DNA of 64,000 nucleotides from Candidatus Curtissbacteria bacterium (lineage in GTDB: Bacteria > Patescibacteriota > Microgenomatia > Curtissbacterales > GWA2-41-24). The position numbers were made by a program, and so were the translations under genes. Where the stretch lies: the NCBI GenBank assembly GCA_016183325.1, contig JACPEV010000013.1, positions 4,837 through 68,836 on the forward strand, written 5' to 3'. Below the pieces are notes generated by a model. That model did no database searches and was not told where the DNA came from. It saw nothing but the letters and a program-made list of their open reading frames with translations. The stretch's first letter is position 1, and every line of letters starts with the position of its first letter. Below, in pieces: positions 10,814 through 61,778 of this stretch.

Positions 10814-12751
10814 ATGGCAAAAGTAGAATCGCAAGAGAACGGAAAATTAGCGGGTAGGTCCCCGATACCGCGCGTGCCTTTGCCTAAAATGAACGGTAAA
10901 TCTTCCTGGAGGGGATTTTTGATTTATATTGTTTTGGGATTTATTCTTTTTATTTTCTTCGCGTTTTCTACCAATCCAGAGCAGCGATTTCAAACGGCTG
11001 AACCACTCTCAAAAGTGATTTCTGACATTCGTGACAATAAAGTCGAACAAGTCGAAGTCGATGGGGAGAGAATTTCAGTCAAATTAAAGGATGGTACGGT
11101 TTATGCTTCCAGAAAAGAGGAAAATCAGAGCATGACCGAAATATTGAAAGATGCTGATGTTGATCCAACTTTGGCCCAGATTAACGTTCGTGATCGGACT
11201 TTTTCGCAGGCGTGGATTACAATATTGACCACTTTTTTACCTTTGGTACTAATGGTTCTTTTCTTCTTTTTTATTTTCAGGCAGGCCAGAGAAGGCGCTT
11301 CTTCGGTTTTTGCTTTTGGCCAGTCAAAAGCTAGGCAATTCAGCCGCGATATGCCAAAGGTTACTTTTGCGGATGTGGCCGGAGTTGATGAAGCTAAGCA
11401 AGAGCTACAAGAGGTGGTTGACTTTTTAAGACATCCTGAAAAATATAGAGCAGTTGGTGCAAGAACTCCCAAAGGAGCACTTTTGATTGGGCCAGCTGGT
11501 ACCGGTAAAACACTTTTAGCAAAGGCTGTTGCCGGAGAAGCGGGAGTGCCTTTTTATTCGGTTGCCGGTAGTGAATTTATGGAAATGTTGGTCGGAGTCG
11601 GGGCTGCCAGGGTTCGCGATCTATTTTCCCAAGCAAAAAGAAGTGCCCCGGCAATTATTTTTATTGATGAGATTGAATCAATCGGCAGAATGAGAGGGAT
11701 GGGCTTTTCGGGAGGTCACGACGAGCGCGAGCAGACTCTAAATCAGATTTTGGTTGAAATGGATGGATTTAATCCAAATGATAACGTTCTGGTGATGGCA
11801 GCGACTAACAGACCTGATTTATTGGATCCCGCCCTGACCCGACCTGGCAGGTTTGATAGAAGAGTCACTTTGGATCTTCCTGATATTGAGGGAAGAAAAG
11901 CGATACTTAAAATTCACAAGAAGGGGAAACCGTTTGCGCCGGATGTTGATGACGAGCGGATTGCCAGAAGAACCGTAGGTTTTTCGGGAGCGGATCTTGC
12001 CAATATGTTAAATGAGGCAGCGATTTTGGCGGCAAGAACGGGTAAAAAAGCTATTGATAACTTGGATATTGAGGAGGCTGCCACAAAAGTTAAACTTGGG
12101 CCACAAAGGAGAAGGATGCAATCTGAGGAAGAAAGAAAGATGACGGCATATCATGAAGGAGGGCATGCGCTGGTTGCTCATTTCCTGCCGAATGTTGACC
12201 CGGTTCATAGAATTTCTATTGTTGCTCGAGGCGTGACAGGAGGGCATACATTAGTGCCGCCTACAGTTGACAGGTATACGGAAACTAAGACAAGGTTGAT
12301 GGAAAGAATTGCCACTTTGCTTGGGGGAAGATCTGCTGAGGAGCTGATTTTTAATGAGTTTACAACCGGTGCAGCTTCTGATCTGGAAATTGCATCAGGT
12401 CTGGCCCGGGATATGGTGACTGAGTTTGGCATGAGCGATCTAGGGCCTACCATATTTTCTCCGAGGCCTCAGTTTGGAATCTGGCCGGTGATGGAAGGGG
12501 GAAGTCAAGTGTCACCGGAGCTGGCTGCCAAAATTGATAAAGAGATTTCTAAGTTAATTGATGCGGGGCATAAAAAGGCAAGAGAGTTGTTGCAAAAACA
12601 TAAGGCGAAACTTGATCTTGTCGCAGAGACTCTTCTTGTGAAGGAGACTTTGGATCGAGATGAGTTTGAGAAGCTGGTCGGTAAGCCAGTTTCTACAAAT
12701 GGGGAGATTAAAATTAAGAGCTCTACTTCTGCCAAATCCGTCCAGGCATGA
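10814..12751 (+). CDS. ftsH: ATP-dependent zinc metalloprotease FtsH
   Basis: 645 aa. N-terminal TM helices, AAA Walker A GPAGTGKT, second region of homology (SRH), and zinc motif HEGGHALVAH. Confidence 0.95.
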   Translation: MAKVESQENGKLAGRSPIPRVPLPKMNGKSSWRGFLIYIVLGFILFIFFAFSTNPEQRFQTAEPLSKVISDIRDNKVEQVEVDGERISVKLKDGTVYASRKEENQSMTEILKDADVDPTLAQINVRDRTFSQAWITILTTFLPLVLMVLFFFFIFRQAREGASSVFAFGQSKARQFSRDMPKVTFADVAGVDEAKQELQEVVDFLRHPEKYRAVGARTPKGALLIGPAGTGKTLLAKAVAGEAGVPFYSVAGSEFMEMLVGVGAARVRDLFSQAKRSAPAIIFIDEIESIGRMRGMGFSGGHDEREQTLNQILVEMDGFNPNDNVLVMAATNRPDLLDPALTRPGRFDRRVTLDLPDIEGRKAILKIHKKGKPFAPDVDDERIARRTVGFSGADLANMLNEAAILAARTGKKAIDNLDIEEAATKVKLGPQRRRMQSEEERKMTAYHEGGHALVAHFLPNVDPVHRISIVARGVTGGHTLVPPTVDRYTETKTRLMERIATLLGGRSAEELIFNEFTTGAASDLEIASGLARDMVTEFGMSDLGPTIFSPRPQFGIWPVMEGGSQVSPELAAKIDKEISKLIDAGHKKARELLQKHKAKLDLVAETLLVKETLDRDEFEKLVGKPVSTNGEIKIKSSTSAKSVQA

Positions 12752-12917: not shown

Positions 12918-14024
12918 ATGACGAAGAAGAAGGATGTATACTCGGAGATTAATAATATGGCTAAAAAGCTGCTTCTAATCGACGGGAATTCACTATTTCA
13001 TCGGGCATATCATGCACTGCCGCCGCTGACGGATAAAAACGGGGAGATGGCCAATGCGGTGTTTGGATTTTCTAATATGTTGCTTAAGGCAATTTCTGAA
13101 GTCAAACCGGATTATATTGCTTGTGCATTTGACACAAAAGCTCCGACTTTTCGCCACATTGAATTTGAGAAATATAAAGCTCAAAGAGTTGCGCCGCCGC
13201 CGGATCTTTATCCGCAACTGCCGAAAGTGAAAAAAGTTTTGGATGCGTTTGGAATTGCTTATTTTGAAAAAGAGGGCTATGAAGCAGATGATTTGTTGGC
13301 AACACTGGCAACTAGAGCCTTGGAATCTGTCATCCTGGAGGGAGTGAAACGACCGATAGGATCTAATGAAAAAAAGAGTAGAGATTCTATCGCTTCGCTC
13401 CAGAATGACAAAAGTGTAGATCAAGTAATTATTCTTTCTGGTGATAGAGACTGTCTGCAATTAGTTGACGGTAGAGTCAAAGTTCAGATGCCGGGATGGA
13501 ATTTGCAGGGGACTACATTATATGGATCGGAGGAGGTTCGGGAAAAATATGGACTCGAACCTCATCAGATGGTGGATTACAAGTCGCTCGTCGGAGATCC
13601 TTCGGATAATGTGCCGGGAGTCAGTGGAATAGGGCCAAAAACTGCAAGTCAACTTTTACAAAAATATCACACCCTGGAAAATCTTTTTAAAAACCTTAAC
13701 AAGATTCCTGAGGCTTTACGTCAAAAACTAGAAGTCGGCCACAAGACAGCCCTTGCTGCTAAGAAGTTGGTGGAACTGGACCGAAACATCGATTTACGAT
13801 TTACGATTAACGATTTACGATTTGAACCGGATTGGGAGAAGGTTCGGCGGGAATACGAACGATTAGGCTTTAAAAGCATAGTCGCGAAGATCCTTGGATC
13901 AGCTAACACCTCCGAGGTGGGTTTACCCCGAGCGGAGTCGAGGGGCTTTGACTCATCGGAGGTGGGTCAAGCCGCGAAGCGAAAACCCAAATCCAATAAC
14001 TCTGATCAGCTTGAGTTAATCTGA
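12918..14024 (+). CDS. 5'-3' exonuclease (Pol I N-terminal domain / FEN family), stand-alone, with a C-terminal extension
   Basis: KKLLLIDGNSLFHRAYHALPPL, then GYEADD, and H3TH GVSGIGPKTA. Probable true start is MAKKLL at 12957. Contains in-frame repeat insertions at 13329-13409, about 13790-13830 and 13906-13966. Confidence 0.8.
   Translation: MTKKKDVYSEINNMAKKLLLIDGNSLFHRAYHALPPLTDKNGEMANAVFGFSNMLLKAISEVKPDYIACAFDTKAPTFRHIEFEKYKAQRVAPPPDLYPQLPKVKKVLDAFGIAYFEKEGYEADDLLATLATRALESVILEGVKRPIGSNEKKSRDSIASLQNDKSVDQVIILSGDRDCLQLVDGRVKVQMPGWNLQGTTLYGSEEVREKYGLEPHQMVDYKSLVGDPSDNVPGVSGIGPKTASQLLQKYHTLENLFKNLNKIPEALRQKLEVGHKTALAAKKLVELDRNIDLRFTINDLRFEPDWEKVRREYERLGFKSIVAKILGSANTSEVGLPRAESRGFDSSEVGQAAKRKPKSNNSDQLELI
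13329..13409 (+). repeat. palindromic element family A, copy A1, in-frame within the exonuclease gene
   Basis: gtcatcctggagggagtgaaacgaccgataggatc...gattctatcgcttcgctccagaatgac, with inverted termini gtcatYctggag. Translated in-frame as SVILEGVKRPIGSNEKKSRDSIASLQNDK. Confidence 0.8.
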
Positions 14025-15471: not shown

Positions 15472-16782
15472 ATGAAAATCGCCCTCGTCCATGACTACTT
15501 AAACGAATTTGGTGGGGCAGAACGGGTTCTTTTGGCGCTGTCGGAGATTTGGCCCAAGGCGCCGATTTATACGGCGTTTTATAAAAAGGGATCGACGGCA
15601 TACGAGCGATTTGCCGATAAAAAAATAATTGCTTCTTGGGCCCAAAATGTGCCCTTTTTTGCCGACTACTTGCACAGTCCCTTGAGATTTTTAGCTCCTT
15701 TGATTTGGGGCAGTTTTGATTTTTCGGGATTTGATGTGGTCATTACGTCGGCCAGTTGGTATGTGACGAAAGGCGTGATCAGGTCATCAGGTCATCAGGT
15801 AATCAGGACATCGGGAAAAAAGGGGAAAAATCCCGACAACCCGACAACCCGACAACCCGACAACCCGATTGAGGTTTGTTATTGTCACACGCCACCGAGA
15901 TATTTGTATGGCTATACAACCTCGGTTGATTGGCAGAAATATTGGCCGGTGAGGTTGTATGCACTGATAGTGAATCATTTCATGCGGGTTTATGATTTTG
16001 AAGCAGCGCAGAGGGTCGATCATTTTATTGCTAATTCGAAGGAAGTCGCAGGAAGGATTAAGAAGTTTTACAGACGTGATTCGACGGTAATTTATCCGCC
16101 GGTAGATTTACCATGTTCATCGTTAATTGTTAATAGTTCATCGGAAAAAAGAGCGATGAACGATAGGCAAAGCCTGCGGTCCTCGTCGAGTCAAGACTCG
16201 ACTCCGGGCCTAAAACGATCTACGATTAACGATTACTTCCTTGTTGTTTCCAGAATCGTCGGCGGTAAAGGTTTAAATTTAGCTGTTGAGGTGGCGATGA
16301 AAATGAACTTGAAGTTGAAAGTGGTGGGGAGTTCGGCGGGGTATGGAAGGGAATATCAAAAATTGAGAGAGATAGCCCGCCTCAGCTCGGCGAGGCAAAC
16401 TGGTCCAAATGTGGAGTTTTTGGGGTTTGTCGAAGATAGTGAGCTTGCCGAACTATACTGCGGAGCACGAGCTTTTTTGGCTTTGGCGCAGGATGAGGAT
16501 TTTGGAATAACGCCTGTTGAGGCGATGCTTTGCGGCACACCGGTGATTGCGTTTGATGGGGGGGGATATAGGGAAACGGTCATCCAGCGAAAAACCGGGC
16601 TGTTCTTTGATCCGGCGACAGCGGGTTCTTTAACTTTGGCAATTAATAATTTTTTAGATATGGAGAAAAAGGGGGAGTGGGACCGTGATTTTATCAAAGA
16701 ACACGCGCAGAAGTTTAATAAAGACAGGTTTAAGAAGGAAATAATCAAATTTGTACAGCATAAGATACGGATGGGAGAGTGA
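15472..16782 (+). CDS. glycosyltransferase family 4 (GT-B, RfaG-like)
   Basis: N-terminal MKIALVHDYLNEFGGAERV and C-terminal EDFGITPVEAMLCGTPVIAFDGGGYRETV (E-x7-E region). Two in-frame simple-repeat insertions at 15779-15870 and 16130-16240. Confidence 0.8.
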   Translation: MKIALVHDYLNEFGGAERVLLALSEIWPKAPIYTAFYKKGSTAYERFADKKIIASWAQNVPFFADYLHSPLRFLAPLIWGSFDFSGFDVVITSASWYVTKGVIRSSGHQVIRTSGKKGKNPDNPTTRQPDNPIEVCYCHTPPRYLYGYTTSVDWQKYWPVRLYALIVNHFMRVYDFEAAQRVDHFIANSKEVAGRIKKFYRRDSTVIYPPVDLPCSSLIVNSSSEKRAMNDRQSLRSSSSQDSTPGLKRSTINDYFLVVSRIVGGKGLNLAVEVAMKMNLKLKVVGSSAGYGREYQKLREIARLSSARQTGPNVEFLGFVEDSELAELYCGARAFLALAQDEDFGITPVEAMLCGTPVIAFDGGGYRETVIQRKTGLFFDPATAGSLTLAINNFLDMEKKGEWDRDFIKEHAQKFNKDRFKKEIIKFVQHKIRMGE

Positions 16783-16868: not shown

Positions 16869-17279
16869 ATGCGATCGCAGAGGGCACTGAATTTTATGAA
16901 GGCACAGAATTACAATTACAAACATAGTAATTTAACCGGTAAAATAATTGAGCTGGCAATTAAAGTTCATAAAAATTTGGGTTCAGCATACGAGGAGAAG
17001 CTTTATCAACGAGCGCTTTATTTGGAGCTTCAAAGATCAGGCCTAAGGTTTGAAAGGGAAAAGGAAATCAGTATTAATTATGGTAACGTTAGAATTGGCA
17101 AAAAGAAGTTAGATTTTGTTGTAGACGGCAAGATAGTTGTTGAATTGAAGAAGATAGATGCTATTGATAAAGTTCACGTCGCACAGGTAGTGTCATACTT
17201 GAAAACTTTAGGACTTAGCGTTGGTCTAATTTTGAATTTTGGCAATAGCAAACTTGAAATAAAAAGAGTAGTAGTTTGA
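16869..17279 (+). CDS. GxxExxY-family protein (PD-(D/E)xK nuclease-like)
   Basis: LGSAYEEKLYQRAL...VDGKIVVELKK. A paralog lies at 21871-22260. Confidence 0.6.
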   Translation: MRSQRALNFMKAQNYNYKHSNLTGKIIELAIKVHKNLGSAYEEKLYQRALYLELQRSGLRFEREKEISINYGNVRIGKKKLDFVVDGKIVVELKKIDAIDKVHVAQVVSYLKTLGLSVGLILNFGNSKLEIKRVVV

Positions 17280-20708: not shown

Positions 20709-21805
20709 GTTTAAATTTAATTAACTTCCGCAACTTTTCTTCTCAAAAGATAGCTTTTGATAAAAATTTAACGGTGGTGATTGGGCCCAATGGGGCTGGC
20801 AAGAGTAATATTTTGGAGGCGTGTGGGCTTTTGGCGACTGTCAGATCGAGCCGAGTCAAGACAGATTTGGACCTGGTCAAATTCGGCAAAAGCGAGGCCA
20901 AAGTAGAGGGCAAAGTTGAGAGTCAAAGTGGAAAGAATGTACTAACCATTAATTTTCAAGTTATCGATGAAACTTATGTGAAGAAATCGTATTTTATTGA
21001 TGAAATAAAAAAGCGATATATTGATTTTAGCGAGCATTTTTCGGTTGTTATTTTTGAACCCTTGGATCTGGATCTGGTTTCCGGTTCACCATCTTTGCGG
21101 CGGCATCATTTAGATATTTTGCTTTCCAGTGGTAATCGAGCGTATTGGCGGAGTTTAAGTTCTTACAATAAGGTAGTAGTCCGCCGCAATAAGGTTCTCT
21201 GGCGAATTGCGGAGGGGAAATCAAAGCCAAGTGAGCTTGATTTTTGGGACGAGCGGTTTTTGGAGCATGGCAAGATAGTTTCCCAAAAAAGGCATGATTT
21301 TTTTGAATTTTTAAATGCTTCGACAGGCTCAGCACAGGTTTTATCAGAATCCGCCAATTCCTCCACCCCCGGGGTGAAAAGAGCCTACACCCCGGGGGTG
21401 TCCCTTGGCGGATTCTCATGGGAACTGAAACAAAGCCTGCTTTCTGAGGAAAAACTTTTAAGAAATCGGGAAAGGGATATTGCGGCGGGGATAACTTTGT
21501 CCGGGCCGCACCGGGATGATTTTAGGTTTTTGTTCAAAAATAAAGACTTGGAGTTTTTCGGAGCACGGGGGGATCAAAGAATGGCGGTTTTGGCGCTGAA
21601 GCTGGCGGAGCTGGAGTATATGGCAACAAAGCGTTTTGCCAGACCGGTTTTGGCACTAGATGATATTTTTTCGGAGCTTGACCATGAGCATCGGGAAGCG
21701 GTTTTGGATGTGATTGGAAAACAGCAAGTGATTATTACGGCGGCCGAACCCGATTCTTTGCCAAAGAAGATTTTTACGAAAGCGAAGGTTGTGGAACTGC
21801 GGTAA
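20696..21805 (+). CDS. recF: DNA replication and repair protein RecF
   Basis: MEILSLNLINFRNF, Walker A GPNGAGKSNILEA, and C-terminal ABC signature and D-loop LDDIFSELD. Carries the family-B palindrome in-frame at 21361-21403. Confidence 0.85.
   Translation: MEILSLNLINFRNFSSQKIAFDKNLTVVIGPNGAGKSNILEACGLLATVRSSRVKTDLDLVKFGKSEAKVEGKVESQSGKNVLTINFQVIDETYVKKSYFIDEIKKRYIDFSEHFSVVIFEPLDLDLVSGSPSLRRHHLDILLSSGNRAYWRSLSSYNKVVVRRNKVLWRIAEGKSKPSELDFWDERFLEHGKIVSQKRHDFFEFLNASTGSAQVLSESANSSTPGVKRAYTPGVSLGGFSWELKQSLLSEEKLLRNRERDIAAGITLSGPHRDDFRFLFKNKDLEFFGARGDQRMAVLALKLAELEYMATKRFARPVLALDDIFSELDHEHREAVLDVIGKQQVIITAAEPDSLPKKIFTKAKVVELR
21361..21403 (+). repeat. palindromic element family B, copy B2, in-frame in recF
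   Basis: ctccacccccggggtgaaaagagcctacaccccgggggtgtcc encodes STPGVKRAYTPGVSL. Near-identical to 62775-62820. Confidence 0.8.
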
Positions 21806-21870: not shown

Positions 21871-22260
21871 ATGGCAAAATTGGTTTATCCTGATTTAAGC
21901 TATAAAATAATGGGTATACTTTTTGAAGTACACAATAGATTAGGTGGCAATTTCGAAGAGAAATATTACCAGAGAGCGGTAGAAAAGTTGTTAAAACTGA
22001 ATAATTTGAAATACGATAGAGAACTACTAGCAAATATTTCTTTCGAAGGTGATAGGATAGGTAACTATTATTTAGATTTCCTGGTGGAGGATAAAATTAT
22101 TGTGGAACTTAAAACAGTGCCAAAACTCTTACCTATTCATTTCAGGCAAGTTCGATCTTATTTGAAAGTGAAAAAATTACAACTTGGGATTTTAGCTAAT
22201 TTTAGAGGAAATGGCCTTATTTATAAAAGAGTATTAAATCCCGTTGCACTTAATTATTAG
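21871..22260 (+). CDS. GxxExxY-family protein (PD-(D/E)xK nuclease-like)
   Basis: LGGNFEEKYYQRAV...VEDKIIVELKT. Paralog of 16869-17279. Confidence 0.6.
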   Translation: MAKLVYPDLSYKIMGILFEVHNRLGGNFEEKYYQRAVEKLLKLNNLKYDRELLANISFEGDRIGNYYLDFLVEDKIIVELKTVPKLLPIHFRQVRSYLKVKKLQLGILANFRGNGLIYKRVLNPVALNY

Positions 22261-22296: not shown

Positions 22297-23361
22297 ATGT
22301 ACATCCCAAAATTTACCATTACCAACAAAATCCTAAAGGAGATTGGGAGAGTGGAAGCTTCTAAGGAAATAATTGAGAATGCGCCGCTTGTGCCGGCTTA
22401 TGAGGCCAAGTTTCGGGATGAGGCGATAATCAGAACCGTTCATCACGGAACACACATTGAGGGTAATCCGCTTAATACCGGCGAAGTAGCGGCTGTTTTG
22501 GAGGGTAGAGAAGTTGAAGCAAAGGATCGGGACGTGCAGGAAGTTTTGAATTATCGAAGGGTTTTGGCGTACATCGATAAACGACGAACGACTAACGACA
22601 AACGCCAAAACGTTTCAGAGAAAGATCTTCTCTCAATTCATCGTCTTACAGTAGAGAAGATTTTGGCTCCTAACAAGGCCGGAAAATATCGCAAAACCCA
22701 AGTGGTGGTCAAGAATTCGAAGACAGGCAAAGTCAGTTTTGTGCCGCCGAAAGCCAGTGAAGTGCCGACTTTAGTTCGCGATTTTATGGCATGGCTTTCT
22801 GAGAAGTCCGAAGAAATTCATCCGGTTTTGGCAGCAGGAATTACGCATTATGTTTTGGCGTTTATTCATCCCTTTGTGGACGGGAATGGGAGGTCTGCAA
22901 GGGCTTTGGCGACGATGGTTTTGTTTGCCAGAGGCTATGATATTAAAAAGTTTTTTTCGCTGGAGGAATATTTTGACAGAAGTGCCGGCAAATATTACGA
23001 AACGTTGCAAACTGTTTCCAATCAAAAAGCAGAAAGTTTGTCCGATCGCGATCTGACAGTCTGGCTGGAGTATTTTTGTCAGGGTTTAGCTGAGGAGCTT
23101 GCAAAAGTTAGGGGGAGGGTACAGAAATTGTCGCTTGATCTGAAGTTGAAAGGGAGGACAGGTCAGCTAGTGCTTTCGGAGCGGCAAATGAAGCTGGTTG
23201 AGTATCTTGAATCTTACGGATCGATTAGCAATCGGGCTTGGCGCAGCCTACTTTCGAAATTTTCAGACGATACCATTTTGCGTGATCTTAAAGATTTGCA
23301 GAAAAAAGGGCTGATAAAGAAAAAAGGTTCGACAAAAGGAGCCGTGTATGTTCTGAAATGA
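22297..23361 (+). CDS. Fic-family protein (Fic/DOC AMPylator-like) with a C-terminal winged helix
   Basis: Fic motif HPFVDGNGRSARAL. Confidence 0.8.
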   Translation: MYIPKFTITNKILKEIGRVEASKEIIENAPLVPAYEAKFRDEAIIRTVHHGTHIEGNPLNTGEVAAVLEGREVEAKDRDVQEVLNYRRVLAYIDKRRTTNDKRQNVSEKDLLSIHRLTVEKILAPNKAGKYRKTQVVVKNSKTGKVSFVPPKASEVPTLVRDFMAWLSEKSEEIHPVLAAGITHYVLAFIHPFVDGNGRSARALATMVLFARGYDIKKFFSLEEYFDRSAGKYYETLQTVSNQKAESLSDRDLTVWLEYFCQGLAEELAKVRGRVQKLSLDLKLKGRTGQLVLSERQMKLVEYLESYGSISNRAWRSLLSKFSDDTILRDLKDLQKKGLIKKKGSTKGAVYVLK

Positions 23362-23395: not shown

Positions 23396-25288
23396 ATGAA
23401 ATTTTCGACTTTGGCGCAATACTACGAAAAGCTTGAGGCGACTTCCAAAAGGTTAGAACTTGTGGACATTTTATCCAAGCTCTTTAAGGAAGCAAAAGCG
23501 GAGGAGATTGGGAAAATTTGTTATTTGATTCAGGGAAGAGTGGCGCCGTTTTTTGAAGCGACAGAGATTGGAATGGCAGAATCGATGGTGGCATCTGCGA
23601 TAGCCAAAGCTTTTGGTGAGGACAAAGATAAAGTTACCAAATCATATCGCAGTTTAGGAAACATGGGTTTGGCTGCACAAAAGCTATCGCAAGGTTCCCA
23701 CCAGAAGGGCGGGCAGGCGCCGTTCAAAGTTCACCCTTCGACTCCTTCGGCTTCGCTCAGGACAAGTTCGCTCAGGGCAAGCAGTTCAAAGTTGTCTGTT
23801 AGTGAGGTTTTTGATGAACTTTTAAAGATTGCAAAGTTTACAGGAAAGGGGACTGTTGAGCAAAAGGTTTCAACACTCTCTGAACTTTTGAAAAAGCTTG
23901 ATCCTGTTTCGGTTAAGCACGTTGCCAATATTCCGCTTGGGACTCTGAGGCTTGGGATTGGGGATCCGACTGTGCTTGATGCGTTGTCATTGGCGAAAAA
24001 AGGCGATAAGTCACTACGTCCAGTCTTGGAGGATGCTTATAACAAGACGAGTGATTTGGGATATGTGGCAGAGACATATTTTAAACTGCAAGAAGGCGGG
24101 CTTAAAAATATCAAACTTGTGGTCGGTAAACCAATACGACCGGCACTGGCAGAAAGATTGCCTTCAGCAGAAGAGGCGGTCAAAAGACTTGGCGGTGAAT
24201 TTGCGGCAGAGCCGAAATTTGACGGCTTTAGGGTGCAGGTGCATTTGTCCCCTTCCATCAAGTCTGAGGTAATTAGGGGTTCAACCCTTAAAGATCTAGC
24301 TCGGGCGACTTCGGGGGTTGAACCCCGATTGGAACACGTCAAATTATTTTCCAGGAATCTTGAAAATACGACGCATGCTTTCCCGGATATTGTAGAAGGA
24401 GTGAAGCGCGAAGTTGGTGCAAAGTCGGCAATACTTGAGGGTGAAGCGATTGCTTATAACCCCACTACCTCCGAATTCTTGCCGTTTCAGGAAACAACCA
24501 AAAGACGTCGTAAATATCAGGTTGAGGAAATGGTCAAAAAACTGCCTTTGGTTTTATTTGTCTTTGATCTTTTGTATTTAAACGGGAAGGATATAACAGA
24601 AAAACCTTATCGCGAGAGGAGAAAACTTTTAACAGGGATTGTGCCAAAGGAAGGTAAGGTTGTGAGACTGGCTGAGGAAAGAACACTAAAGGGAGCAGGT
24701 GAGATCACAAAGTTTTTCAACGAAGCTGTTTCCGAAGGACTTGAGGGTTTGATGCTCAAAAAATTGGACAGTCCATACGTTGCCGGGGGTAGGGGTTTTC
24801 ATTGGATCAAGTTTAAGAGAAGCCAGGCAGGAGAGCTGACGGATACGGTCGATTGTGTGATTTTGGGAGTATTTAGCGGTAAAGGGAAGCGGACTGAGTT
24901 TGGCGTCGGTGGGCTTTTAGTGGGGGTATATGAGAAGAAACGTGATGAATTTGTGACAATCTCCAGAATCGGGACAGGGCTGACGGATGAGGAGTTTCGG
25001 CAAGTTAATGAGCTTGCCAAAAAGTTGAAAGTTTCACACAAGCCCTCCAGAGTTAATTCTAAAATCGAACCGACTTTTTGGGTCGAACCAAAAGAAGTTT
25101 TGGAAATTTATGCGGATGAAATAACGCGTTCACCGATTCATACGGCCGGAGCCGATAAAGACGGCATAGGTTATGCGTTGCGATTCCCAAGACTGGTAAA
25201 GTTTAGAGGGAAGGACAAACGCGCTGAGGATGCGACAACTGTTGAGGAAGTTGAGAAGATGTATAAGCAACAGTATAAGAAGAAATAG
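23396..25288 (+). CDS. ATP-dependent DNA ligase
   Basis: Motif I AEPKFDGFRVQVH (KxDG). The N-terminal DNA-binding domain and OB-fold regions are typical of archaeal/eukaryote-type ATP ligases. A low-complexity Ser-rich insert (PSTPSASLRTSSLRASSSKLS) is present. Confidence 0.8.
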   Translation: MKFSTLAQYYEKLEATSKRLELVDILSKLFKEAKAEEIGKICYLIQGRVAPFFEATEIGMAESMVASAIAKAFGEDKDKVTKSYRSLGNMGLAAQKLSQGSHQKGGQAPFKVHPSTPSASLRTSSLRASSSKLSVSEVFDELLKIAKFTGKGTVEQKVSTLSELLKKLDPVSVKHVANIPLGTLRLGIGDPTVLDALSLAKKGDKSLRPVLEDAYNKTSDLGYVAETYFKLQEGGLKNIKLVVGKPIRPALAERLPSAEEAVKRLGGEFAAEPKFDGFRVQVHLSPSIKSEVIRGSTLKDLARATSGVEPRLEHVKLFSRNLENTTHAFPDIVEGVKREVGAKSAILEGEAIAYNPTTSEFLPFQETTKRRRKYQVEEMVKKLPLVLFVFDLLYLNGKDITEKPYRERRKLLTGIVPKEGKVVRLAEERTLKGAGEITKFFNEAVSEGLEGLMLKKLDSPYVAGGRGFHWIKFKRSQAGELTDTVDCVILGVFSGKGKRTEFGVGGLLVGVYEKKRDEFVTISRIGTGLTDEEFRQVNELAKKLKVSHKPSRVNSKIEPTFWVEPKEVLEIYADEITRSPIHTAGADKDGIGYALRFPRLVKFRGKDKRAEDATTVEEVEKMYKQQYKKK

Positions 25289-29694: not shown

Positions 29695-30399
29695 TTGTCA
29701 ATTGTTATAACTATGCCTTCGGCTGCTGAACTGATAAATTTTGCGGAACAACTAATTATTCGCTGGGGAATTTGGTTAATACCGATCGGGGCATTTTTGG
29801 AAAATTCGATAATTTTGGGATTTATTTTTCCTGGAGTGACTGTGATTTTTTTGTCGGGATTTGTAGCCAGAACAAGCGGCGAAAATCTATTTTTAATAAT
29901 TTTACTGGCGACTTTAGGGTCATTTTTGGGTGACAATTTTGATTATTTAATCGGTAAGCGAGCAGGCAAGGTTCTAGAGGAAAAGCCACTTTTTGCCAAA
30001 CCAGTATCTTTAGTAGAGCCTTTTTTGCTAAAACACGGGATCTGGGCAGTTTTCGCCGGCCGTTTTTCTGCTTGGAGCCGAGCTTGGATAGCGCTGGCCT
30101 GCGGGATTATTCGGTTTAAGTACTGGAAATTTGCGCTAGTTTCGGCAGCGTCGGCGCTGATTTGGACTTCTGCCTGGATTATCGGTGGCTATTTAATGGC
30201 TGGTAATCGCAAGCTGATTGAGGAGTGGTTTGACCGAGCATCGGATTTAGTTATCCTGGGCCTTTTGGTCCTTATTATTTACTATTTCAGGACAAGATTG
30301 AAGCTGATTTTTGATTTGGTAGTTTATTTTATCCACAAAACAGGAAAGCGGGTAGTCGGAAAGGTGACAGGTAATGACCAGGACCGAGGGCAAGTTTAG
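29695..30399 (+). CDS. DedA-family membrane protein
   Basis: LIGKRAGKVLEEKP...GIWAVFAGRF is a DedA/SNARE-associated signature, with multiple TM helices. Confidence 0.65.
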   Translation: MSIVITMPSAAELINFAEQLIIRWGIWLIPIGAFLENSIILGFIFPGVTVIFLSGFVARTSGENLFLIILLATLGSFLGDNFDYLIGKRAGKVLEEKPLFAKPVSLVEPFLLKHGIWAVFAGRFSAWSRAWIALACGIIRFKYWKFALVSAASALIWTSAWIIGGYLMAGNRKLIEEWFDRASDLVILGLLVLIIYYFRTRLKLIFDLVVYFIHKTGKRVVGKVTGNDQDRGQV

Positions 30400-30850
30400 C
30401 GATCTGGTATATCAATTAGTCAGTCAGATCCCAAAAGGCAAAGTAGCAACGTATGGTGAGATAGTGGCAGAATTGCGCCAACAGGAACACCTCCGAGGTG
30501 TAGGCTCTTTCCACCTCGGAGGTGGAGGAGCTAGAGCGGTAGGCAATGCATTGCATCGCAATCGGGATCCGAAAGTTCCATGTCATAGAGTAGTGGATCG
30601 CAATGGACGGTTGGCGACGCATTTTGCGTTCGATGGGGCTGGTGAACAAAAAAGACGTTTAGTTGCGGAAGGCGTTAAATTCAAAGATAATATGCATGTA
30701 GATTTGGGGGAATGTTTATGGGACGAGAGAGAAACAGATATCTTCATCACAGACCTATTCATTCTCGAGAGAGGTCACATAATCGTAAATATACAATTGA
30801 ATTTTTGGCTGGGGCAATTTATTCCCTTAAAGAGTCTGACAATCCAATAA
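30374..30850 (+). CDS. methylated-DNA-protein-cysteine methyltransferase DNA-binding-domain protein (MGMT/ATL-like)
   Basis: Active-site context VPCHRVV (PCHR). An in-frame palindrome insert (family C) encodes GVGSFHLGGG. The C-terminal end is uncertain. Confidence 0.55.
   Translation: MTRTEGKFSDLVYQLVSQIPKGKVATYGEIVAELRQQEHLRGVGSFHLGGGGARAVGNALHRNRDPKVPCHRVVDRNGRLATHFAFDGAGEQKRRLVAEGVKFKDNMHVDLGECLWDERETDIFITDLFILERGHIIVNIQLNFWLGQFIPLKSLTIQ
30488..30525 (+). repeat. palindromic element family C (cacctccgaggtg...cacctcggaggtgg), in-frame in the MGMT-like gene
   Basis: Perfect 14-nt inverted arms. A related copy lies at 13906-13966. Confidence 0.7.
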
Positions 30851-30952
30851 ATCCTCAATATTTAATTACTAATCATCACAACTTGTATGAAAACATTCGT
30901 AATTATCCTGGAGGATGGCGTAAAGTCGTAACTGAGGCTGGATTCGACCCTG

Positions 30953-31264
30953 ATGAAGAAAATGCAGCTGGAATTAAAAAGAGACGGCAAGAAAATGGTT
31001 CAGGTTAAAGTTAGAATATATGGTTCAGTTCAAGGGGTTTTCTTTCGGCATTCGGCGAGAAAAGAAGCGGAGAGATTGGGATTGACCGGTTGGGTGAGGA
31101 ACAGTGACGACGGATCGGTGGAGGCAATAGCAGAGGGTTCCAAAGATAAGTTGGAGGAGTTTGTGGCTTGGTGTAAAAAAGGCCCGACGGCGGCAGAGGT
31201 GGAGAAGGTCCAAGTAGAGTGGAATGAAGCAGACGAAAATTTGGAAAGATTTGAAATTGTGTGA
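30953..31264 (+). CDS. acylphosphatase
   Basis: VKVRIYGSVQGVFFRHSARKEAERLGLTGWVRNSDDGSVE matches the acylphosphatase signatures. The start may be the internal Met at 30995. Confidence 0.75.
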   Translation: MKKMQLELKRDGKKMVQVKVRIYGSVQGVFFRHSARKEAERLGLTGWVRNSDDGSVEAIAEGSKDKLEEFVAWCKKGPTAAEVEKVQVEWNEADENLERFEIV

Positions 31265-43336: not shown

Positions 43337-45151
43337 ATTTGCGGGATTTTTGGTTACGTTGGTAAACAGCGTGACGCTGCAAAGATTGTTTTTGAGGGTC
43401 TTAAGCGGCTTGAATACCGCGGTTATGATTCGTGGGGAATAGTTGCGGTGAGTGGAAAGTTGAAAGTTGAGAGTGGAAAATTATTAGTAGAAAAGCATGT
43501 GGGGAAAATCGGCAATTCAACTCTCAATTCTCAACTCTCAATTCTCAAATCAAGTATAGCTCTTGGCCACACGCGCTGGGCGACGCACGGGGGAGTGACT
43601 AAGGAGAATGCCCATCCACATTTAGATTGCAGCGGAAATTTGGCTTTGGTTCATAACGGCATTGTCGAAAATTATCAAGAGCTTAAAAAAAGCCTCAAAA
43701 AAAAGCATAAATTTAAATCTCAGACGGATTCGGAAGTGATAGTACACATGATCGAGGAATTGAGAGGCTTAATCTCTTCTAAGGTTGAACCTTCAACAAA
43801 GGTTCAACCTTTAAAAGATACTGTCAGGAAAGTGTTTTTGAAACTCACAGGACTTAACGCTATTGTAGTGATGAATGATGGAGAACTGGTTGTTGCTAAG
43901 AACGGATCTCCTTTAGTTTTGGGGATAGGCAGTGGTGAGTATTTAGTAGCTTCTGATGCGGCGGCGCTTTTGCCTCACACAAATAAAGTTATTTTCCTGC
44001 GAGACAACCAGATGGCAGAAATAACGGATAGTGGAGTAAATATTTTTGATATAGCCTCAGATGAGGCAGTAACACCAAAAGTAGAAATACTAAATTGGAA
44101 AATTGAAGAAGCAAATCTTGGAGGCCATAAACACTTCATGATCAAAGAAATTTACGAGCAGCCAAAGGTTATCAGGAACATATCAGAAACTTATATAGAC
44201 CAAATAAGTGATCTTTGTAAGGTAATCGAGAAAGCTCATGGCACATTTTTTATTGGGGCTGGAACCGCATTTAATGCTTGTCTTGCCGGGGCGTATCTTT
44301 TTTCAAAGATTGCAAAAGCGCATGTAAATACGATTGTCGCTTCCGAATTTAATTATCTGGAGCATTTTTTACATAAAGAAACTTTGGTGATTGCTCTTTC
44401 ACAATCCGGGGAAACAATCGACGTTATTGAGCCCTTGAAAAGGGCAAAAGAAAAAGGTGCCAAGATTGTGGCGATTGTAAATAATTTGGGCTCGACGATT
44501 TGGCAAATGGCAGATTATAAATTGTTACTTGGTGCCGGAGTTGAGATGGCGGTTGCTTCAACAAAAGCTTATGTTTCTAAACTTTCTGTTTTAATCTTGA
44601 TTGCATATGGACTCGTGAATAGACTGGACGAGGGAAGAAAATTGCTTGCAGAGGCTGCTGATGAGGTTGAAAGACTATTGTTCGAGGAAGTGGAAAACAT
44701 AAAAAAAATCGCAAAAATTTTAGCAGTCCACGATCATATTTTTACCATTGGTCGAGGACTTTCGTATCAAACGGCCCTTGAGGCTGCTTTGAAGATGAAA
44801 GAGGTTAGTTATATTCATACGGAAGGATTGGCTGGAGGAGAGCTGAAGCACGGGCCGATTGCATTAATTTCAAAAGGGACGCCGTGCGTTGTTTTTGCAC
44901 CAAACGATGAGACACATGAGGCAATTATTTCTAACGCCACCGAGATTAAAGCAAGAGGCGGGTTGATTATCGGGGTTGGGTCAAAAAAGTCAGAAGTGTT
45001 TGACGAATGGGTCCAAGTGCGAGATTTAGGGGACGCTTCTATAATTTGCAATGTTATTCCAGCACAGCTATTTGGTTATTTTTTGGCGATTGAGAAAGGT
45101 TTGGACCCGGATAAGCCAAGAAATTTAGCAAAGTCAGTCACTGTGAAATAA
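43337..45151 (+). CDS. glmS: glutamine--fructose-6-phosphate aminotransferase, apparently initiating at ATT
   Basis: Frame reads (I)CGIFGYVGKQRDAAKIVFEGLKRLEYRGYDSWGIV, with the Ntn Cys directly after the initiator, plus two SIS domains and C-terminal ...KSVTVK. AAGGAGG sits 5 nt upstream of ATT 43337. The nearest in-frame ATG (43448) would delete the catalytic Cys. Two in-frame simple-repeat inserts at 43450-43550. Confidence 0.8.
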   Translation: MCGIFGYVGKQRDAAKIVFEGLKRLEYRGYDSWGIVAVSGKLKVESGKLLVEKHVGKIGNSTLNSQLSILKSSIALGHTRWATHGGVTKENAHPHLDCSGNLALVHNGIVENYQELKKSLKKKHKFKSQTDSEVIVHMIEELRGLISSKVEPSTKVQPLKDTVRKVFLKLTGLNAIVVMNDGELVVAKNGSPLVLGIGSGEYLVASDAAALLPHTNKVIFLRDNQMAEITDSGVNIFDIASDEAVTPKVEILNWKIEEANLGGHKHFMIKEIYEQPKVIRNISETYIDQISDLCKVIEKAHGTFFIGAGTAFNACLAGAYLFSKIAKAHVNTIVASEFNYLEHFLHKETLVIALSQSGETIDVIEPLKRAKEKGAKIVAIVNNLGSTIWQMADYKLLLGAGVEMAVASTKAYVSKLSVLILIAYGLVNRLDEGRKLLAEAADEVERLLFEEVENIKKIAKILAVHDHIFTIGRGLSYQTALEAALKMKEVSYIHTEGLAGGELKHGPIALISKGTPCVVFAPNDETHEAIISNATEIKARGGLIIGVGSKKSEVFDEWVQVRDLGDASIICNVIPAQLFGYFLAIEKGLDPDKPRNLAKSVTVK

Positions 45152-47321: not shown

Positions 47322-47721
47322 TTGTCAAGCGGTGTAGAATTAGTCGCGCGATATGCGAATACTGTTTGGTAATTTTTCTTCATTCTTACAAGTTCGCAAT
47401 TCATAGCTCTTTAACAACTGAAAAGTATGCCGCTTTTCAGTATTCTTTTGTTTGATCTTGATCCGCCTACGCTCTTCGAGCTTCGGCGGACTGCGAGTTC
47501 AAGCAAGCTTGAACTCTGAAAAGTGGCACCCAAAAAACCGGAAATCGGAATTCGGAAATCGGATTTCGGACTTTTTCTGAGATCTGATATCTGATATCTG
47601 AAATCCGGGAATAATCCTTAGAGTTATTTAAAATCGAGTTCAGATTAAATTCTTTTTTGAGAGTTTGATCCTAGCTCAGGATGAACGCTGGCGGCGTGCC
47701 TTAGGCATGCAAGTCGAACGG

Positions 47722-48155
47722 CCGGAGATCAGATTTCGGAAATCGGATTTCGGATATAATTAGAGAAGTGATGGATGTAACGGAATTGAGAGTGTATAGG
47801 CAATCATTAGATGCATTTCTATTAATTGAAGAGATTGCAAAACAATTGCCAAAAGAGTTAGCTGATACAAGAAGACAAATATTAAGATGCTCAAAAGCTG
47901 TTGCACCCATTATTGCAGAGGGTTTTGGACGTAGACATTCACAAAGAGAATTTGGACATTACGTAATTCAAGCTATGAGTTCTTCAGATGAGACAATAAC
48001 CCATTTGAGAACAATTGCTATTTCCAAATTTAATACTGTTTCAATCGATCAGTTGAAACATGCGGCGAGTGTCTATAAATCTCTTTCCAAACAACTCAAC
48101 AAACTTTTCACTTCTTTAATAGTCTGAAATCTGACTTCTGATATCCGATCTCCGG
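47722..48155 (+). other. intervening sequence in the 16S helix-6 region, bounded by inverted repeats and encoding a protein
   Basis: ccggagatcagatttcggaaatcggatttcgga (5' boundary) and tccgaaatc...atccgatctccgg (3' boundary) are inverted repeats around ORF 47768-48127. The mature 16S resumes with cagtggcggaagggtgagtaatg. Confidence 0.65.
47768..48127 (+). CDS. four-helix-bundle protein of the family known as rRNA intervening-sequence (S23-like) proteins
   Basis: LRVYRQSLDAFLLIEEIAKQLPKELADTRRQILRCSKAVAPIIAEGFGRRHSQREFGHYVIQAMSSSDETITHL matches the family pattern, including AEG[FY]GRR. Confidence 0.7.
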   Translation: MMDVTELRVYRQSLDAFLLIEEIAKQLPKELADTRRQILRCSKAVAPIIAEGFGRRHSQREFGHYVIQAMSSSDETITHLRTIAISKFNTVSIDQLKHAASVYKSLSKQLNKLFTSLIV

Positions 48156-48929
48156 CAGTGGCGGAAGGGTGAGTAATGCATAGGAACGTACCTTTTGGTG
48201 GGGAATAACCCGGCGAAAGCCGGGCTAATACCTCGTAATCCCGCAAGGGTATAGGGCTTAACCGCCCGCCGAAAGAGTGGCCTATGTCCTATCAGCTTGT
48301 TGGTGGGGTAATGGCCTACCAAGGCAACGACGGGTAGCTGGGCTGAGAGGTCGGCCAGCCACAAGGGAACTGAGACACGGTCCCTACACCTACGGGTGGC
48401 AGCAACCGGGAATTTTGGACAATGGGCGAAAGCCTGATCCAGCGACGCCGCGTGGAGGAAGAAGGCCTTAGGGTTGTAAACTCCTTTTGGCCCGCATAAT
48501 GCGGGCAGAATAAGCACCTGCTAACTACGTGCCAGCAGCCGCGGTGATACGTAGGGTGCAAGCGTTATCCGGATTTACTGGGCGTAAAGGGTTGCGTAGG
48601 CGGCTTGTTAAGTCAAAACTGAAATACTCTCGCTCAACGAGGGGGACGGTTTTGATACTAGCAGGCTTTGAGTCTTTCAGAGGTAGCTGGAACTTGCAGT
48701 GGAGCGGTGAAATGCGTTGATATTGCAAGGAACACCGAAGGCGTAGGCAAGCTACTGGGAAAGATCCCTGTACCATTCGGTACGGGACGGGCTGCATCGT
48801 AAGATGCGCCTAGTCTGACGCTGATGCACGAAAGCTAGGGGAGCGAAAGGGATTAGAGACCCCTGTAGTCCTAGCCGTAAATGATGGATACTAGATGTCC
48901 GGCTCGCAAAGTCGTATGACTTTGCGAGA

Positions 48930-49022
48930 ACATTTGACATTTAACAAATTAACATTTGACTATTGGAAAATTTTGTAAATTTTTTAAGTCAATTGTTAAA
49001 TGTTACTAGTTAATTGTTCGAG
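48930..49022 (+). repeat. insertion of about 90 nt in the 16S helix around E. coli position 840, built of 'acatttgaca/caattgtta' repeats
   Basis: gaacatttgacatttaacaaattaacatttgactattgg...gtcaattgttaaatgttactagttaattgttcg lies between conserved cgcaaagtc...gacttt and gctaacgcgttaagt. Confidence 0.55.
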
Positions 49023-49084
49023 CAAAATCGTAGATTTTGCGAGCTGGATGTCGCAAGCTAACGCGTTAAGTGTCCCGCCTGGGA

Positions 49085-49152
<68 letters not shown>

Positions 49153-49356
49153 CAATTCGACACAAAGCGAAAAACCTTACCAGGATTTGACATCCTAACT
49201 GCACCCTAGTGGAAACACCGGGCTTCTTCGAGAGTGTTAGGACAGGTGCTGCATGGCTGTCGTCAGCTTGTACCGTGAGGCGCACCCTTAAGTGGGTCAA
49301 CAAGCGCAACCCCCATCCTGTGTTATATTTCACAGGAAACTGCCCGCTAAAAGCGA

Positions 49357-49387
<31 letters not shown>

Positions 49388-49588
49388 CGGCCCTTATGTC
49401 CTGGGCTACACACATCCTACAATGGGTATTTGACAACAGGTTTGCAATCCGGTAACGGAAAGCTAATCCCCAAAAATACCCTCAGTTCAGATTGAGGGCT
49501 GCAATTTGCCCTCATGAAGTTGAAATCGCTAGTAATCGCGGATCAGCAGGCCGCGGTGAATACGTTCTCGGGTCTTGTACACACCGCC

Positions 49589-50545
49589 AATTTAAAAAAC
49601 GCGCGTGGCAGCATAAATGGCTAGTTGGTTCAAATCCAACTCACGTTCATGAAACTGAACGTGATAGTCAAAAAAATTAGACAGTTCCGACAGAGTAATT
49701 TGTCGGTACGGAGGGTCTGAGACAAATAGCAGTCCATTTAAAAAAGTTCTTTTCATGAATGATCTCAGCCGGGCGGTTTGAGAGAAATTCAACTAATAAA
49801 GTAGAAGAATTGATGGAATGCTAGGAATAGTTATTTATGTAACCCATGGAGATCCTATCAGGAAGAGGTTATTATCTGGTAGGAAGTCAGCTGTTTCATA
49901 GTAAGTAAATTAGAGGATTGATTTTGTTGCTTGATAGAAGTAAACTAAATTAACCCGAATATTTACCGAAGGGAACAACGAAGTGATAACGTCAGATTAT
50001 ATTGTTGGTTTTACCGACGGCGAAGGCTGTTTTTATGTACAAATAAGAACAGATTTTCGTATCGTGCTTCGATATTTTATAACCCAACGATTTGACAACA
50101 AAGAAATCTTAGAAAATATTTTAAGATTCTTTGGAGTTGGATATGTGCATTTAAAAGCACAAGAGTGGGGTAGGGAATATAGAAGATCTCGGTTACCAAC
50201 ATATGTCTTTGAGGTGACTAAACAGGAACATATTCAAAATGTGATTGTTCCTTTCTTTAGAAAAAATCCACTTCAAGGAGTGAAACAGTTCTCTTTTGAA
50301 AAATTCGCAAAGATTGCAGACCTTGTAAAAGGTCGGCAAGACACGCGACTACTTTCTGAAGAGGAACTTGAATTAATCTGGCAGTTGAAACGTTCTATGA
50401 ATGTTTTAAACACTTCGGCTCGCCTGGTGCCGGAAATCGGCTCGCCGGTCCACCTACGCTAAAGCTACGGTGGATCCTCCGAAGCTCCAAAGGAGCGGAG
50501 GAGGAGTGGGAACGGGAACATACCTCTAAGTATCCCAATCCGTCA
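49589..50545 (+). mobile_element. intron-like insertion of about 0.95 kb near the 16S 3' end (around E. coli 1400), carrying a LAGLIDADG endonuclease ORF
   Basis: The conserved gtacacaccgcc is interrupted at about 49588. A 16S-like sequence (..cgtcaagcc..aagtcggtagtgcctgaag..gtcgtaacaaggta) resumes at about 50545. The exact boundaries are uncertain. Confidence 0.55.
49983..50462 (+). CDS. LAGLIDADG homing endonuclease encoded within the 16S insertion
   Basis: IVGFTDGEGCFYVQI is the LAGLIDADG motif. 159 aa. Confidence 0.8.
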   Translation: MITSDYIVGFTDGEGCFYVQIRTDFRIVLRYFITQRFDNKEILENILRFFGVGYVHLKAQEWGREYRRSRLPTYVFEVTKQEHIQNVIVPFFRKNPLQGVKQFSFEKFAKIADLVKGRQDTRLLSEEELELIWQLKRSMNVLNTSARLVPEIGSPVHLR

Positions 50546-61726: not shown

Positions 61727-61778
61727 GGTTGAGAAAATACAGAGAACAAAACCAGAATGAGAAAATACAGAGAACAAA
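61727..61778 (+). repeat. exact 26-bp tandem duplication inside the folC-like gene
   Basis: gagaaaatacagagaacaaaaccagaat is present twice in tandem. 26 is not a multiple of 3. Confidence 0.85.

Follow-up and report, generated by a model that had tools for sequence, protein, structure and literature searches.

A family of short in-frame hairpin repeats in protein-coding genes of Curtissbacteria and other Microgenomates genomes

Background

Several classes of short palindromic repeat have been described that can serve as a reference for the element treated here, a 37-nt hairpin inside a gene for an MGMT-like protein, on a 64,000-nt stretch of a Candidatus Curtissbacteria genome (contig JACPEV010000013.1, positions 4,837 to 68,836; hereafter the window, which always means the whole stretch) from the Microgenomates group of the Candidate Phyla Radiation (CPR). 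Doublets of repetitive extragenic palindromes (REPs), so-called REPINs, are mobilised by REP-associated tyrosine transposases (RAYTs; Bertels & Rainey 2011, PMC3116915), and two REP superfamilies, tagged with GTAG or CGTC, have been delineated that include intragenic members (Di Nocera et al. 2013, PMC3733652). The Rickettsia palindromic elements (RPEs) are in-frame palindromic repeats of a reduced genome, located in genes whose protein products are probably still functional (PMC3733652). Organelle genes can carry mobile GC-rich or double-hairpin palindromes, among which are the mitochondrial coding palindromes of Nematomorpha (PMC6649704). Literature searches gave no description of such elements in CPR genomes.

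The hairpin of the window is one copy of a repeat family, the members of which are insertions relative to homologous proteins, covary in their stems and carry loops that are specific to the genome. Its copies occupy recurrent hot spots of which other alleles are empty, and within genes they are filtered for frame and orientation. It seems probable, if by no means certain, that this family is a miniature selfish or neutral repeat, resembling REPINs and RPEs, which is tolerated in surface loops. A census of genomes and an alignment of homologues bear out what a first-pass annotation of this DNA had proposed, namely a repeated palindrome family that is tolerated in frame in coding genes.

Results

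The hairpin and its host gene are located as follows.

30374-30850, plus strand: host open reading frame (ORF), MGMT-family protein (PF01035), PCHR cysteine present, without N-terminal domain
30488-30524, minus strand: the reported hairpin, defined by arm and loop sequence, covariance model and fold energy

The left arm CACCTCCGAGGTG (30488-30500) and the right arm CACCTCGGAGGTG (30512-30524) enclose an 11-nt loop, TAGGCTCTTTC (30501-30511), and are exact reverse complements across 13 nt, whereas the first-pass annotation had given perfect arms of 14 nt; the perfect pairing stands, but since A30487 and G30525 do not pair, the stem is 13 bp long. Each 13-mer is itself palindromic around a central C or G. 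As had been claimed, the palindrome lies in frame in the MGMT-like gene, reading EHLRGVGSFHLGGGGA. Its predicted fold has an energy of -25.9 kcal/mol (z = -3.2), and the gene sequence is identical across six independent Logan assemblies, which rules out an assembly artefact. Occurrences of the 13-mer at no more than 2 mismatches number 8 in the window (0.46 expected) and are invariably paired, and the window holds 23 perfect hairpins with a stem of at least 10 bp (1.8 in shuffled sequence), 7 of which have arms of exactly 13 nt.

The host protein matches PF01035 (E = 2.9e-21, residues 8-101) as well as Atl1 and MGMT chains in the PDB, and the residues of its PCHR motif (P69, C70, H71, R72) are invariant among 28 homologues. 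Because the acceptor cysteine of this motif, which ATL proteins lack, is present, the protein is, to judge from its sequence, a single-domain MGMT-like protein rather than an ATL, the N-terminal domain being absent. Compared with Atl1 (3gva) it has 13 additional residues, which lengthen the helix-turn-helix turn that separates the YGEI helix from the ARAVG recognition helix and lie upstream of the intact PCHR motif. The alignment with Ogt/ATL homologues that had been proposed as a check shows this segment to be absent from the solved MGMT/ATL structures and from most homologues. In an AlphaFold2 model, residues 42-51 form a low-confidence loop between helices 27-41 and 52-61, and the last ~40 residues a low-confidence tail. 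The copy would be translated as HLRGVGSFHLGG in the helix-turn-helix turn; the peptides expected from reading through element copies include HLRGVGSFHLGGGGAR, STPGVKRAYTPGVSLGGF and STPGVNELHTGSVSGGDGQ. The MGMT, TrpRS and RecF proteins are 100% identical to NCBI Curtissbacteria entries. Overlapping the MGMT ORF is a further ORF (30712-31008, ...YPGGWRKVVTEAGFDP...) that resembles the C-terminal extension fused to the MGMT domain in one homologue (P0008), which points to a frameshift in the region 30720-31008 or to a two-domain gene that was split there.

A covariance model built from 39 family copies (alignment A4) was run on the 64-kb window and recovered five strong copies (E 1e-10 to 1e-15), in the genes for MGMT, RecF, TrpRS and FolC (two copies), together with a degenerate one in the gene for a 5'-3' exonuclease, and nothing else convincing. 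All six lie inside ORFs. The copies outside the MGMT gene, and a larger hairpin built around one of them, are:

10215-10255, plus strand: TrpRS copy (core 10218-10252), variant stem CACTCCCGGTGTG/CACACCGGGAGTG, loop AATGAACTA
13904-13967, plus strand: degenerate exonuclease copy, covariance model E = 2.5e-4
21343-21419, plus strand: composite 77-nt hairpin in RecF, outer 12-15-bp stem AGAATCCGCCAA / TTGGCGGATTCT around the family copy
21361-21403, plus strand: RecF copy (13-loop-13 core 21364-21400), CACCCCCGGGGTG AAAAGAGCCTA CACCCCGGGGGTG, reading SSTPGVKRAYTPGVS
62037-62077, plus strand: copy in the middle fragment of FolC (core 62040-62074), variant stem CAAACCCGGTTTG, loop AATGAACTA as in the TrpRS copy
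62779-62821, plus strand: copy in the C-terminal fragment of FolC (core 62782-62818), stem CACCCCCGGGGTG, loop AAAGGAGCCTA, reading PSTPGVKGAYTPGVS

As in the MGMT-like protein, these copies coincide with additional residues: the TrpRS copy sits within a 22-aa insertion relative to 6ncr, and the middle FolC copy belongs to an insertion of ~19 aa relative to 1o5z. The exonuclease copy combines a perfect left arm with a right arm (CTCATCGGAGGTG) that contains 2 mismatches, and its interior measures 32 nt. The related sequence that had been reported there at 13906-13966 is therefore real, if degenerate; what was taken for a C-terminal extension is an internal insertion of ~20 aa near the C-terminus, as seen against a 59%-identical orthologue (L125). 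The hairpins fold at -21 to -30 kcal/mol, and the forward copies of the window share one reading frame. Matches to the loop motifs were found in the window solely within the elements themselves, so that a loop complementary to another window sequence was rejected. The FolC gene is broken up into three ORFs (61284-61760, 61711-62196 and 62186-62953), which overlap, lie in successive frames and align to successive parts of FolC, with an AT-rich hairpin (10-bp stem, 41 nt, 61672-61712) at the first junction; it may be a frameshifted pseudogene or reflect a sequencing error.

In RecF, the family copy is nested in a larger structure. The right outer arm of the composite hairpin (fold -49.7 kcal/mol) is native RecF coding sequence (LGGFS), and upstream of the copy the window has an additional 33-nt insertion, the end of which repeats the native downstream codons in inverted form and so creates the outer stem.

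The MGMT copy is inverted with respect to its host. Its family sense (A-rich end of the loop 5') lies on the minus strand, antisense to the gene, where the covariance model scores 56.5 bits, compared with 45.6 bits on the plus strand. Since its reverse complement (loop GAAAGAGCCTA) can be aligned with the copies in RecF and FolC, with compensated stem changes (CC/GG to TC/GA), it is the same element in the opposite orientation, and it is inverted also relative to the hairpins of its own orthologues. The GAGGAG found 3' of this copy is the inverted form of the CTCCTC found 5' of the RecF and FolC copies. The sequence favours a whole inverted unit having replaced an earlier copy over a simple flip of the loop; against such a replacement speaks a copy in the Fic gene of L130, in which the relation of flank and loop is opposite to that at MGMT.

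Further copies, for which a motif census had been suggested, were thus present in RecF, TrpRS and FolC of the window itself, and they are widespread elsewhere. A scan of one genome per species with the pattern CACCYCCGRGGTG-N5-15-CACCYCGGRGGTG, allowing 16 arm combinations, gave at least 114 loci, nearly all of them in Microgenomates-group CPR bacteria (here, and in all counts of census copies below, among the matches listed), with Curtiss-, Levy-, Davies-, Woese-, Beckwith-, Shapiro- and Gottesmanbacteria and other Patescibacteria as hosts. Many "binchicken" metagenome-assembled genomes (MAGs; CAZ*/CAY* records, L014-L124) that were deposited as uncultured Gammaproteobacteria or Pseudomonadales also carry copies; because they are 77-85% identical to Curtiss- or Daviesbacteria loci and CPR-like in gene content, these labels are probably wrong. 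A few high-GC matches (Streptomyces and others), the loops of which are unrelated to the family, look like chance. One MAG alone contributes at least 20 contigs with copies, and in two MAGs many copies lie in regions of short ORFs, amid mosaics of other palindromic modules. When metagenomes were scanned with the loop specific to the window, 21 of 22 matches were chance matches without a hairpin, the single true copy being the RecF element of an L130-like organism. A search of viral contigs for the family gave no match, and a phage origin was rejected on that account.

Across these genomes, the element consists of two inverted 13-nt units (each X6-S-X6') around a spacer of 9-15 nt that is A-rich at one end, 35-41 nt in total. 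Despite the 16 permitted arm combinations, the arms are perfectly complementary in 113 of 117 non-redundant copies, which is the unbiased test of pairing, alignment A4 being partly selected for perfect pairing; in that curated alignment all 507 pair cells are Watson-Crick, and 7 of the 13 pairs have changed on both sides, with no one-sided (G-U type) change. Of 303 exact arms, 265 are part of doublets and the remaining 38 are single. Stem types vary (CACCCC, CACCTC, CAAACC, CACTCC/CACACC; CACCTTCGAGGTG/CACCTCGAAGGTG in the L002 orthologue of MGMT) while complementarity is kept. Loops are A-rich at one end and variable in the rest, yet their similarity is 0.74 within genomes versus 0.44 between genomes, a difference reached in 0 of 2000 permutations. 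In the Curtissbacteria genome MFBV01, for example, the RecF and MGMT copies share the loop AAAAATTCTCA, and in the window they share (A/G)AAAGAGCCTA. The loop being common to both sites and different per genome, the copies of these two genes group by genome and not by site.

The insertion sites themselves show an exchange of content. In syntenic MGMT orthologues, a hairpin is present in the same protein loop, with AAAGCGCACTA, AAAAATTCTCA or, together with a compensated stem change, AAAGATCTCTA as the hairpin loop; in L010 a CAAACC stem lies two codons further on, and in more distant orthologues the site is empty. Conservation of the segment in homologues, which the first-pass annotation had named as a point that would tell against its proposal, is therefore found as regards the presence of a hairpin in this loop of the closest orthologues, but not as regards its loop, stem and position, and it is these differences that indicate turnover rather than an ancestral feature of the protein. 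Of 120 TrpRS orthologues, 58 are empty at the corresponding site (EFNRLY|VFPIPEA junction), and the others contain the present family (family C, with several stem types), a second hairpin family (GGTTSAACC, see below), an LPAGRQ module, long RGPVS-type fillers or other sequence. On a neighbour-joining tree of TrpRS, at least 32 changes between empty and filled are needed, and at least 8 for family C, these being rough counts on a poorly resolved tree. The flanks of filled and empty TrpRS alleles are too diverged for exact boundaries, and extra codons outside the hairpin accompany each insertion. The RecF site is likewise empty or differently filled across orthologues; in comparison with the 74%-identical L130 orthologue, the element of the window differs at 2 of 55 nt and the flanking codons at 5 of 18 nt. 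In the Fic gene, L130 carries a family-C copy in exactly the loop in which the window has in-frame heptamer repeats.

Inside genes, not all placements are equally represented. Of the 117 copies, 65 are found within ORFs of at least 600 nt, of which 33 are in frame 0, 27 in frame 2 and only 5 in frame 1. Among genic copies, the A-rich end of the loop is on the sense strand in 48 versus 9 cases (p = 1.5e-7, with n inflated by orthologous copies), the reported MGMT copy belonging to the minority. Intergenic copies have no orientation bias relative to neighbouring genes (19:12), and orientation relative to GC skew (27:17) is not significant, by which a replication-strand bias as for single-stranded DNA transposition of the IS200/IS605 type was rejected. 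Loops translated in the sense orientation are E/K-rich, and in the reverse orientation they are V/F-rich. Since the two frames encode unrelated peptides (HLRGE..HLGG versus TSEV..TSEV or TPGV..TPGV), it is the DNA that is conserved, not the peptide, and the bias in frame and orientation fits a selection on the translated product that acts on a DNA-level element.

Discussion

The family resembles REPINs in that short palindromic units form inverted doublets around a less conserved spacer, in that the doublet rather than the single unit is conserved, the hairpin being kept by compensatory changes, and in that families evolve within genomes (PMC3116915). Palindromic units are numerous per genome (6 in 64 kb; at least 114 loci in the scan) and occur as inverted hairpin doublets with compensatory changes (265/303; 113/117; 7/13 pairs). 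In contrast, the units here are 13 nt long and the element 35-41 nt, while in the GI doublet of P. fluorescens two invariant 16-mers start 71 bp apart (PMC3116915). With the tagged REPs, the hairpins share the range of dimensions (stems of 5-13 bp, loops of 2-20 bp), the folding of head-to-head dimers into hairpins of larger size, and the occurrence of some units and dimers inside ORFs, where they encode 20-30 aa (PMC3733652). Replication and repair genes are frequent hosts of tagged REPs (PMC3733652), as are RecF, the 5'-3' exonuclease, MGMT and DNA ligase here. However, an intragenic location is the rule for the CPR hairpins (6 of 6 window copies are in ORFs, largely in frame), as opposed to the extragenic REPINs and to the tagged REPs, for which it is the exception; neither GTAG nor CGTC, nor any other conserved tag, adjoins the palindrome, the flanks being variable and the spacer ends A-rich or YTA-like; and no RAYT was found in the sequence covered. 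CPR or Microgenomates bacteria are not among the phyla that the abstract lists for tagged REPs (PMC3733652). For want of tag and extragenic location, and no RAYT having been found, we do not file the family under REP or REPIN, and regard it as REP-like at a smaller scale and mainly intragenic.

The likeness to RPEs lies in the in-frame insertion into otherwise conserved protein genes (here MGMT, TrpRS, GlmS, exonuclease and FolC) and in the reading as selfish DNA that permissive regions of proteins can accommodate. The classic RPE-1 is ~100-150 bp long and encodes tens of residues, and its host is alphaproteobacterial; RPEs are thus set apart by size and host lineage, and their sequences are probably unrelated to the CPR hairpins. 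To our knowledge, homogenisation of loops within a genome and hot spots shared by several families have not been described for RPEs. Elhai et al. (2008) reportedly described very small dispersed repeats of heterocystous cyanobacteria, well below 100 nt in length, which can fold into hairpins, are found inserted in genes and go together with heptamer tandem repeats. They seem similar in that in-frame heptamer repeats occupy sites of this kind in the window, too, and different in sequence, architecture (13-spacer-13 here) and phylum. The Nematomorpha palindromes are likewise inverted repeats embedded in coding sequence with both arms translated, but they are organellar, reach 284 bp and bear no sequence relationship to the CPR hairpins (PMC6649704). 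Miniature inverted-repeat transposable elements, which derive from insertion sequences and carry terminal inverted repeats with a target-site duplication, are longer (70-300 bp versus 35-41 nt); there are no flanking repeats of 3-5 nt here and no related insertion sequence was seen. In an Rfam scan of the window only the 16S rRNA and four tRNAs passed the gathering threshold and no curated covariance model matched the hairpin family, so that a known RNA family was rejected as its identity.

If the family is a selfish or neutral repeat, as seems probable, the element would be non-autonomous; at the DNA level, copies would be gained, exchanged for others and lost, and within each genome they would be homogenised. 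They would persist mainly inside genes in these gene-dense genomes, and would survive only where a surface loop takes up some 12-15 extra codons, in a frame free of stops and preferably in the orientation that encodes hydrophilic residues; to the host, the element would appear to be neutral. We do not think that the perfection of the stem reflects an RNA or protein function. Because the stem is perfect without wobble pairs, and because the RecF palindrome was extended into host sequence, pairing is more readily understood at the DNA level, through a hairpin or cruciform and a templated correction of the quasipalindrome type. The perfect stem would then be maintained either by such intra-hairpin correction, or because only hairpin-forming copies propagate.

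A number of observations weigh against this reading. No transposase (Y1/RAYT, DDE or TnpB) is present among the ORFs of the window, in which a XerC/D-like gene (6081-6953) is the only recombinase, nor does a transposase family recur in 150 ORFs of the two highest-copy MAGs (top 25 families listed). A transposase near the high-copy intergenic copies was likewise looked for, and none was found. The 118 copies have no consistent target-site duplication; flanking direct repeats of 3-5 nt are lacking and those of 2 nt are in weak excess only (20 versus 10.2 expected), and the flank composition of the copies, with a preference for GA, TA and GT on the 3' side, gives no support to a duplication of TA or of any other target. 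The arms are self-palindromic in 95 copies (~56 expected) and hybrid in 18, which exceeds what a hairpin needs, and the borders obey a rule that a simple repeat does not call for, with G directly 5' of arm 1 in only 1 of 118 copies and C directly 3' of arm 2 in only 2 of 118 (L011-L124). Within the same genome, one loop can be found on different stems. No strictly isogenic pair of filled and empty sites was found, so that mobility is inferred from comparisons at ~60-85% protein identity. Finally, the same protein loops could be occupied repeatedly through targeting rather than through selection, and the copy counts include orthologous copies, which are not independent.

A bolder version, which must be called speculative and rather unlikely, is that of a minimal mobile DNA that spreads without any dedicated transposase and continually rewrites the surface loops of essential CPR proteins. 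Such spread could proceed through fork stalling at the hairpin, followed by copy-choice between copies, or through a factor that would read the genome-specific loop as an address, with the universal, symmetric 13-bp stem providing the structure. If so, a major part of the insertions through which CPR proteins appear divergent would come from these elements, a source that has been overlooked.

It is improbable that the palindromes arose locally, by slippage and template switching in hypervariable codons of surface loops and without any transfer between sites. The inverted copy of downstream sequence by which the RecF palindrome runs into native codons is what such a process would leave behind, the same loops do gather heptamer tandem repeats and other low-complexity fillers, and the lack of a transposase, both in the window and in the 150 ORFs of the two MAGs, is in keeping with it. 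A de novo origin is ruled out, however, because near-identical units of 37-43 nt, with the same stem and loop, are found in unrelated genes of one genome and because the same 13-mer stems recur in several candidate phyla. Template switching between copies is possibly the mode of spread of the selfish or neutral repeat that we prefer.

There is also little chance that the hairpin serves the host as part of the mRNA, whether by translational pausing for folding, by stabilising the transcript or as a nuclease processing site. Such a function would explain the very stable folds (-21 to -30 kcal/mol), the strong sense orientation of genic copies (48:9) and the conservation of stem nucleotides, synonymous positions included, between orthologues. 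It does not explain why no stem change goes by way of a G-U intermediate, a pair that RNA helices as a rule tolerate, why intergenic copies have no orientation bias, why the reported MGMT copy is in the minority orientation, or why in close relatives the corresponding site is empty or taken up by an unrelated filler; besides, there is no Rfam match and the host genes are functionally unrelated.

Nor do we expect that the element is a protein-binding site, in which each 13-bp arm is bound by a dimeric recombinase, a component of a restriction-modification system or a DNA-uptake receptor, and paired sites accumulate by molecular drive. The two-fold symmetry of the arms beyond the need of a hairpin (95 self-palindromic versus 18 hybrid), the conservation of the 13-mer across lineages, the symmetric boundary rule and the XerC/D-like recombinase gene of the window all agree with this, and a 13-spacer-13 layout recalls the core sites of recombinases. 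On the other hand, tyrosine recombinases have cores that are shorter and less variable than spacers of 9-15 nt, stems vary while complementarity is kept, each copy adds ~13 codons instead of being host sequence altered by point mutation, and single arms are a minority (38/303).

That the inserted peptide (e.g. TPGV...TPGV) would itself be a selected functional motif of the host proteins is hardly credible, since the insertions may be in frame, stop-free and in surface loops, and the forward copies of the window may share one frame, but two frames and both orientations, with unrelated peptides, are used across genomes, the stem is conserved as nucleotide sequence while the loop-encoded residues vary, and many orthologues lack the insertion.

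If the family is indeed a selfish or neutral repeat, a considerable part of the short lineage-specific insertions in CPR/Microgenomates proteins, including those in essential enzymes such as TrpRS, GlmS and RecF, would be translated selfish DNA and not adaptations, which affects how these genomes are aligned, annotated and placed in phylogenies and how structures are predicted from them. The copies would then amount to a natural map of protein loops that accept ~13 extra residues. With no mobilising enzyme in sight, the family is among the smallest repeat units with signs of propagation, and the genome-specific loops on a common stem make the mechanism of propagation tractable by comparative genomics.

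Further observations

A second hairpin family with the same architecture (13-nt arms RGGTTSAACCY with a central S) is found in four genes of the window:

24276-24326, in the ATP-dependent DNA ligase gene: GGGGTTCAACCC ... GGGTTGAACCCC, 27-nt loop
39879-39905, in the polyprenyl synthetase gene: GGTTCAACCC CTCTGAT GGGTTGAACC
43781-43811, in the GlmS gene: 13-nt arms AAGGTTGAACCTT/AAGGTTCAACCTT, 5-nt loop
58411-58440, in a ClpB-like gene (gene on the minus strand): AGGGTTGAACCCT TCTT AGGGTTCAACCCT

The GlmS hairpin explains 11 additional aa that set the protein apart from its E. coli counterpart, and in other genomes this family fills the same TrpRS and RecF hot spots (e.g. L129 4505-4615).

Other repeats occur in frame as well. 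Tandem repeats of a TAACGAY-like heptamer are present in the exonuclease (13800-13824), a glycosyltransferase (16119-16233) and Fic (22579-22606). In several genomes, further short coding modules occupy the same hot spots, such as ASTGSAQVLSES (GCTTCGACAGGCTCAGCACAGG...; 21314-21346 in the window), LPAGRQV and long RGPVSS...ATPR fillers, and similar modules form intergenic mosaics in the MAG CAZWLF01. Between the genes for tRNA-Cys (51845-51917) and tRNA-Ile (52658-52732), about five copies of a 21-nt palindrome, GGTTTTGACGAAGTCAAAACC, lie in succession with a period of ~48 nt (51952-52165).

Two genes for PDDEXK_3 nucleases (16869-17279 and 21871-22260, one of them directly after RecF) lie near repeats containing GCGATCGC, and in L130 the slot after RecF (10212-10595) holds a gene of the 23S_rRNA_IVP family instead; the genes at these slots may be small mobile genes. 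The 16S rRNA gene (47653-49640) measures 1988 nt compared with 1533 nt for the model, i.e. it has an insertion of ~450 nt, and an ORF for a LAGLIDADG endonuclease (49983-50462) lies just downstream. A LAGLIDADG domain is also found in an intein of the 1065-aa FtsH of L125 (6332-9529), whereas the FtsH of the window (10814-12751) has 645 aa and no intein.

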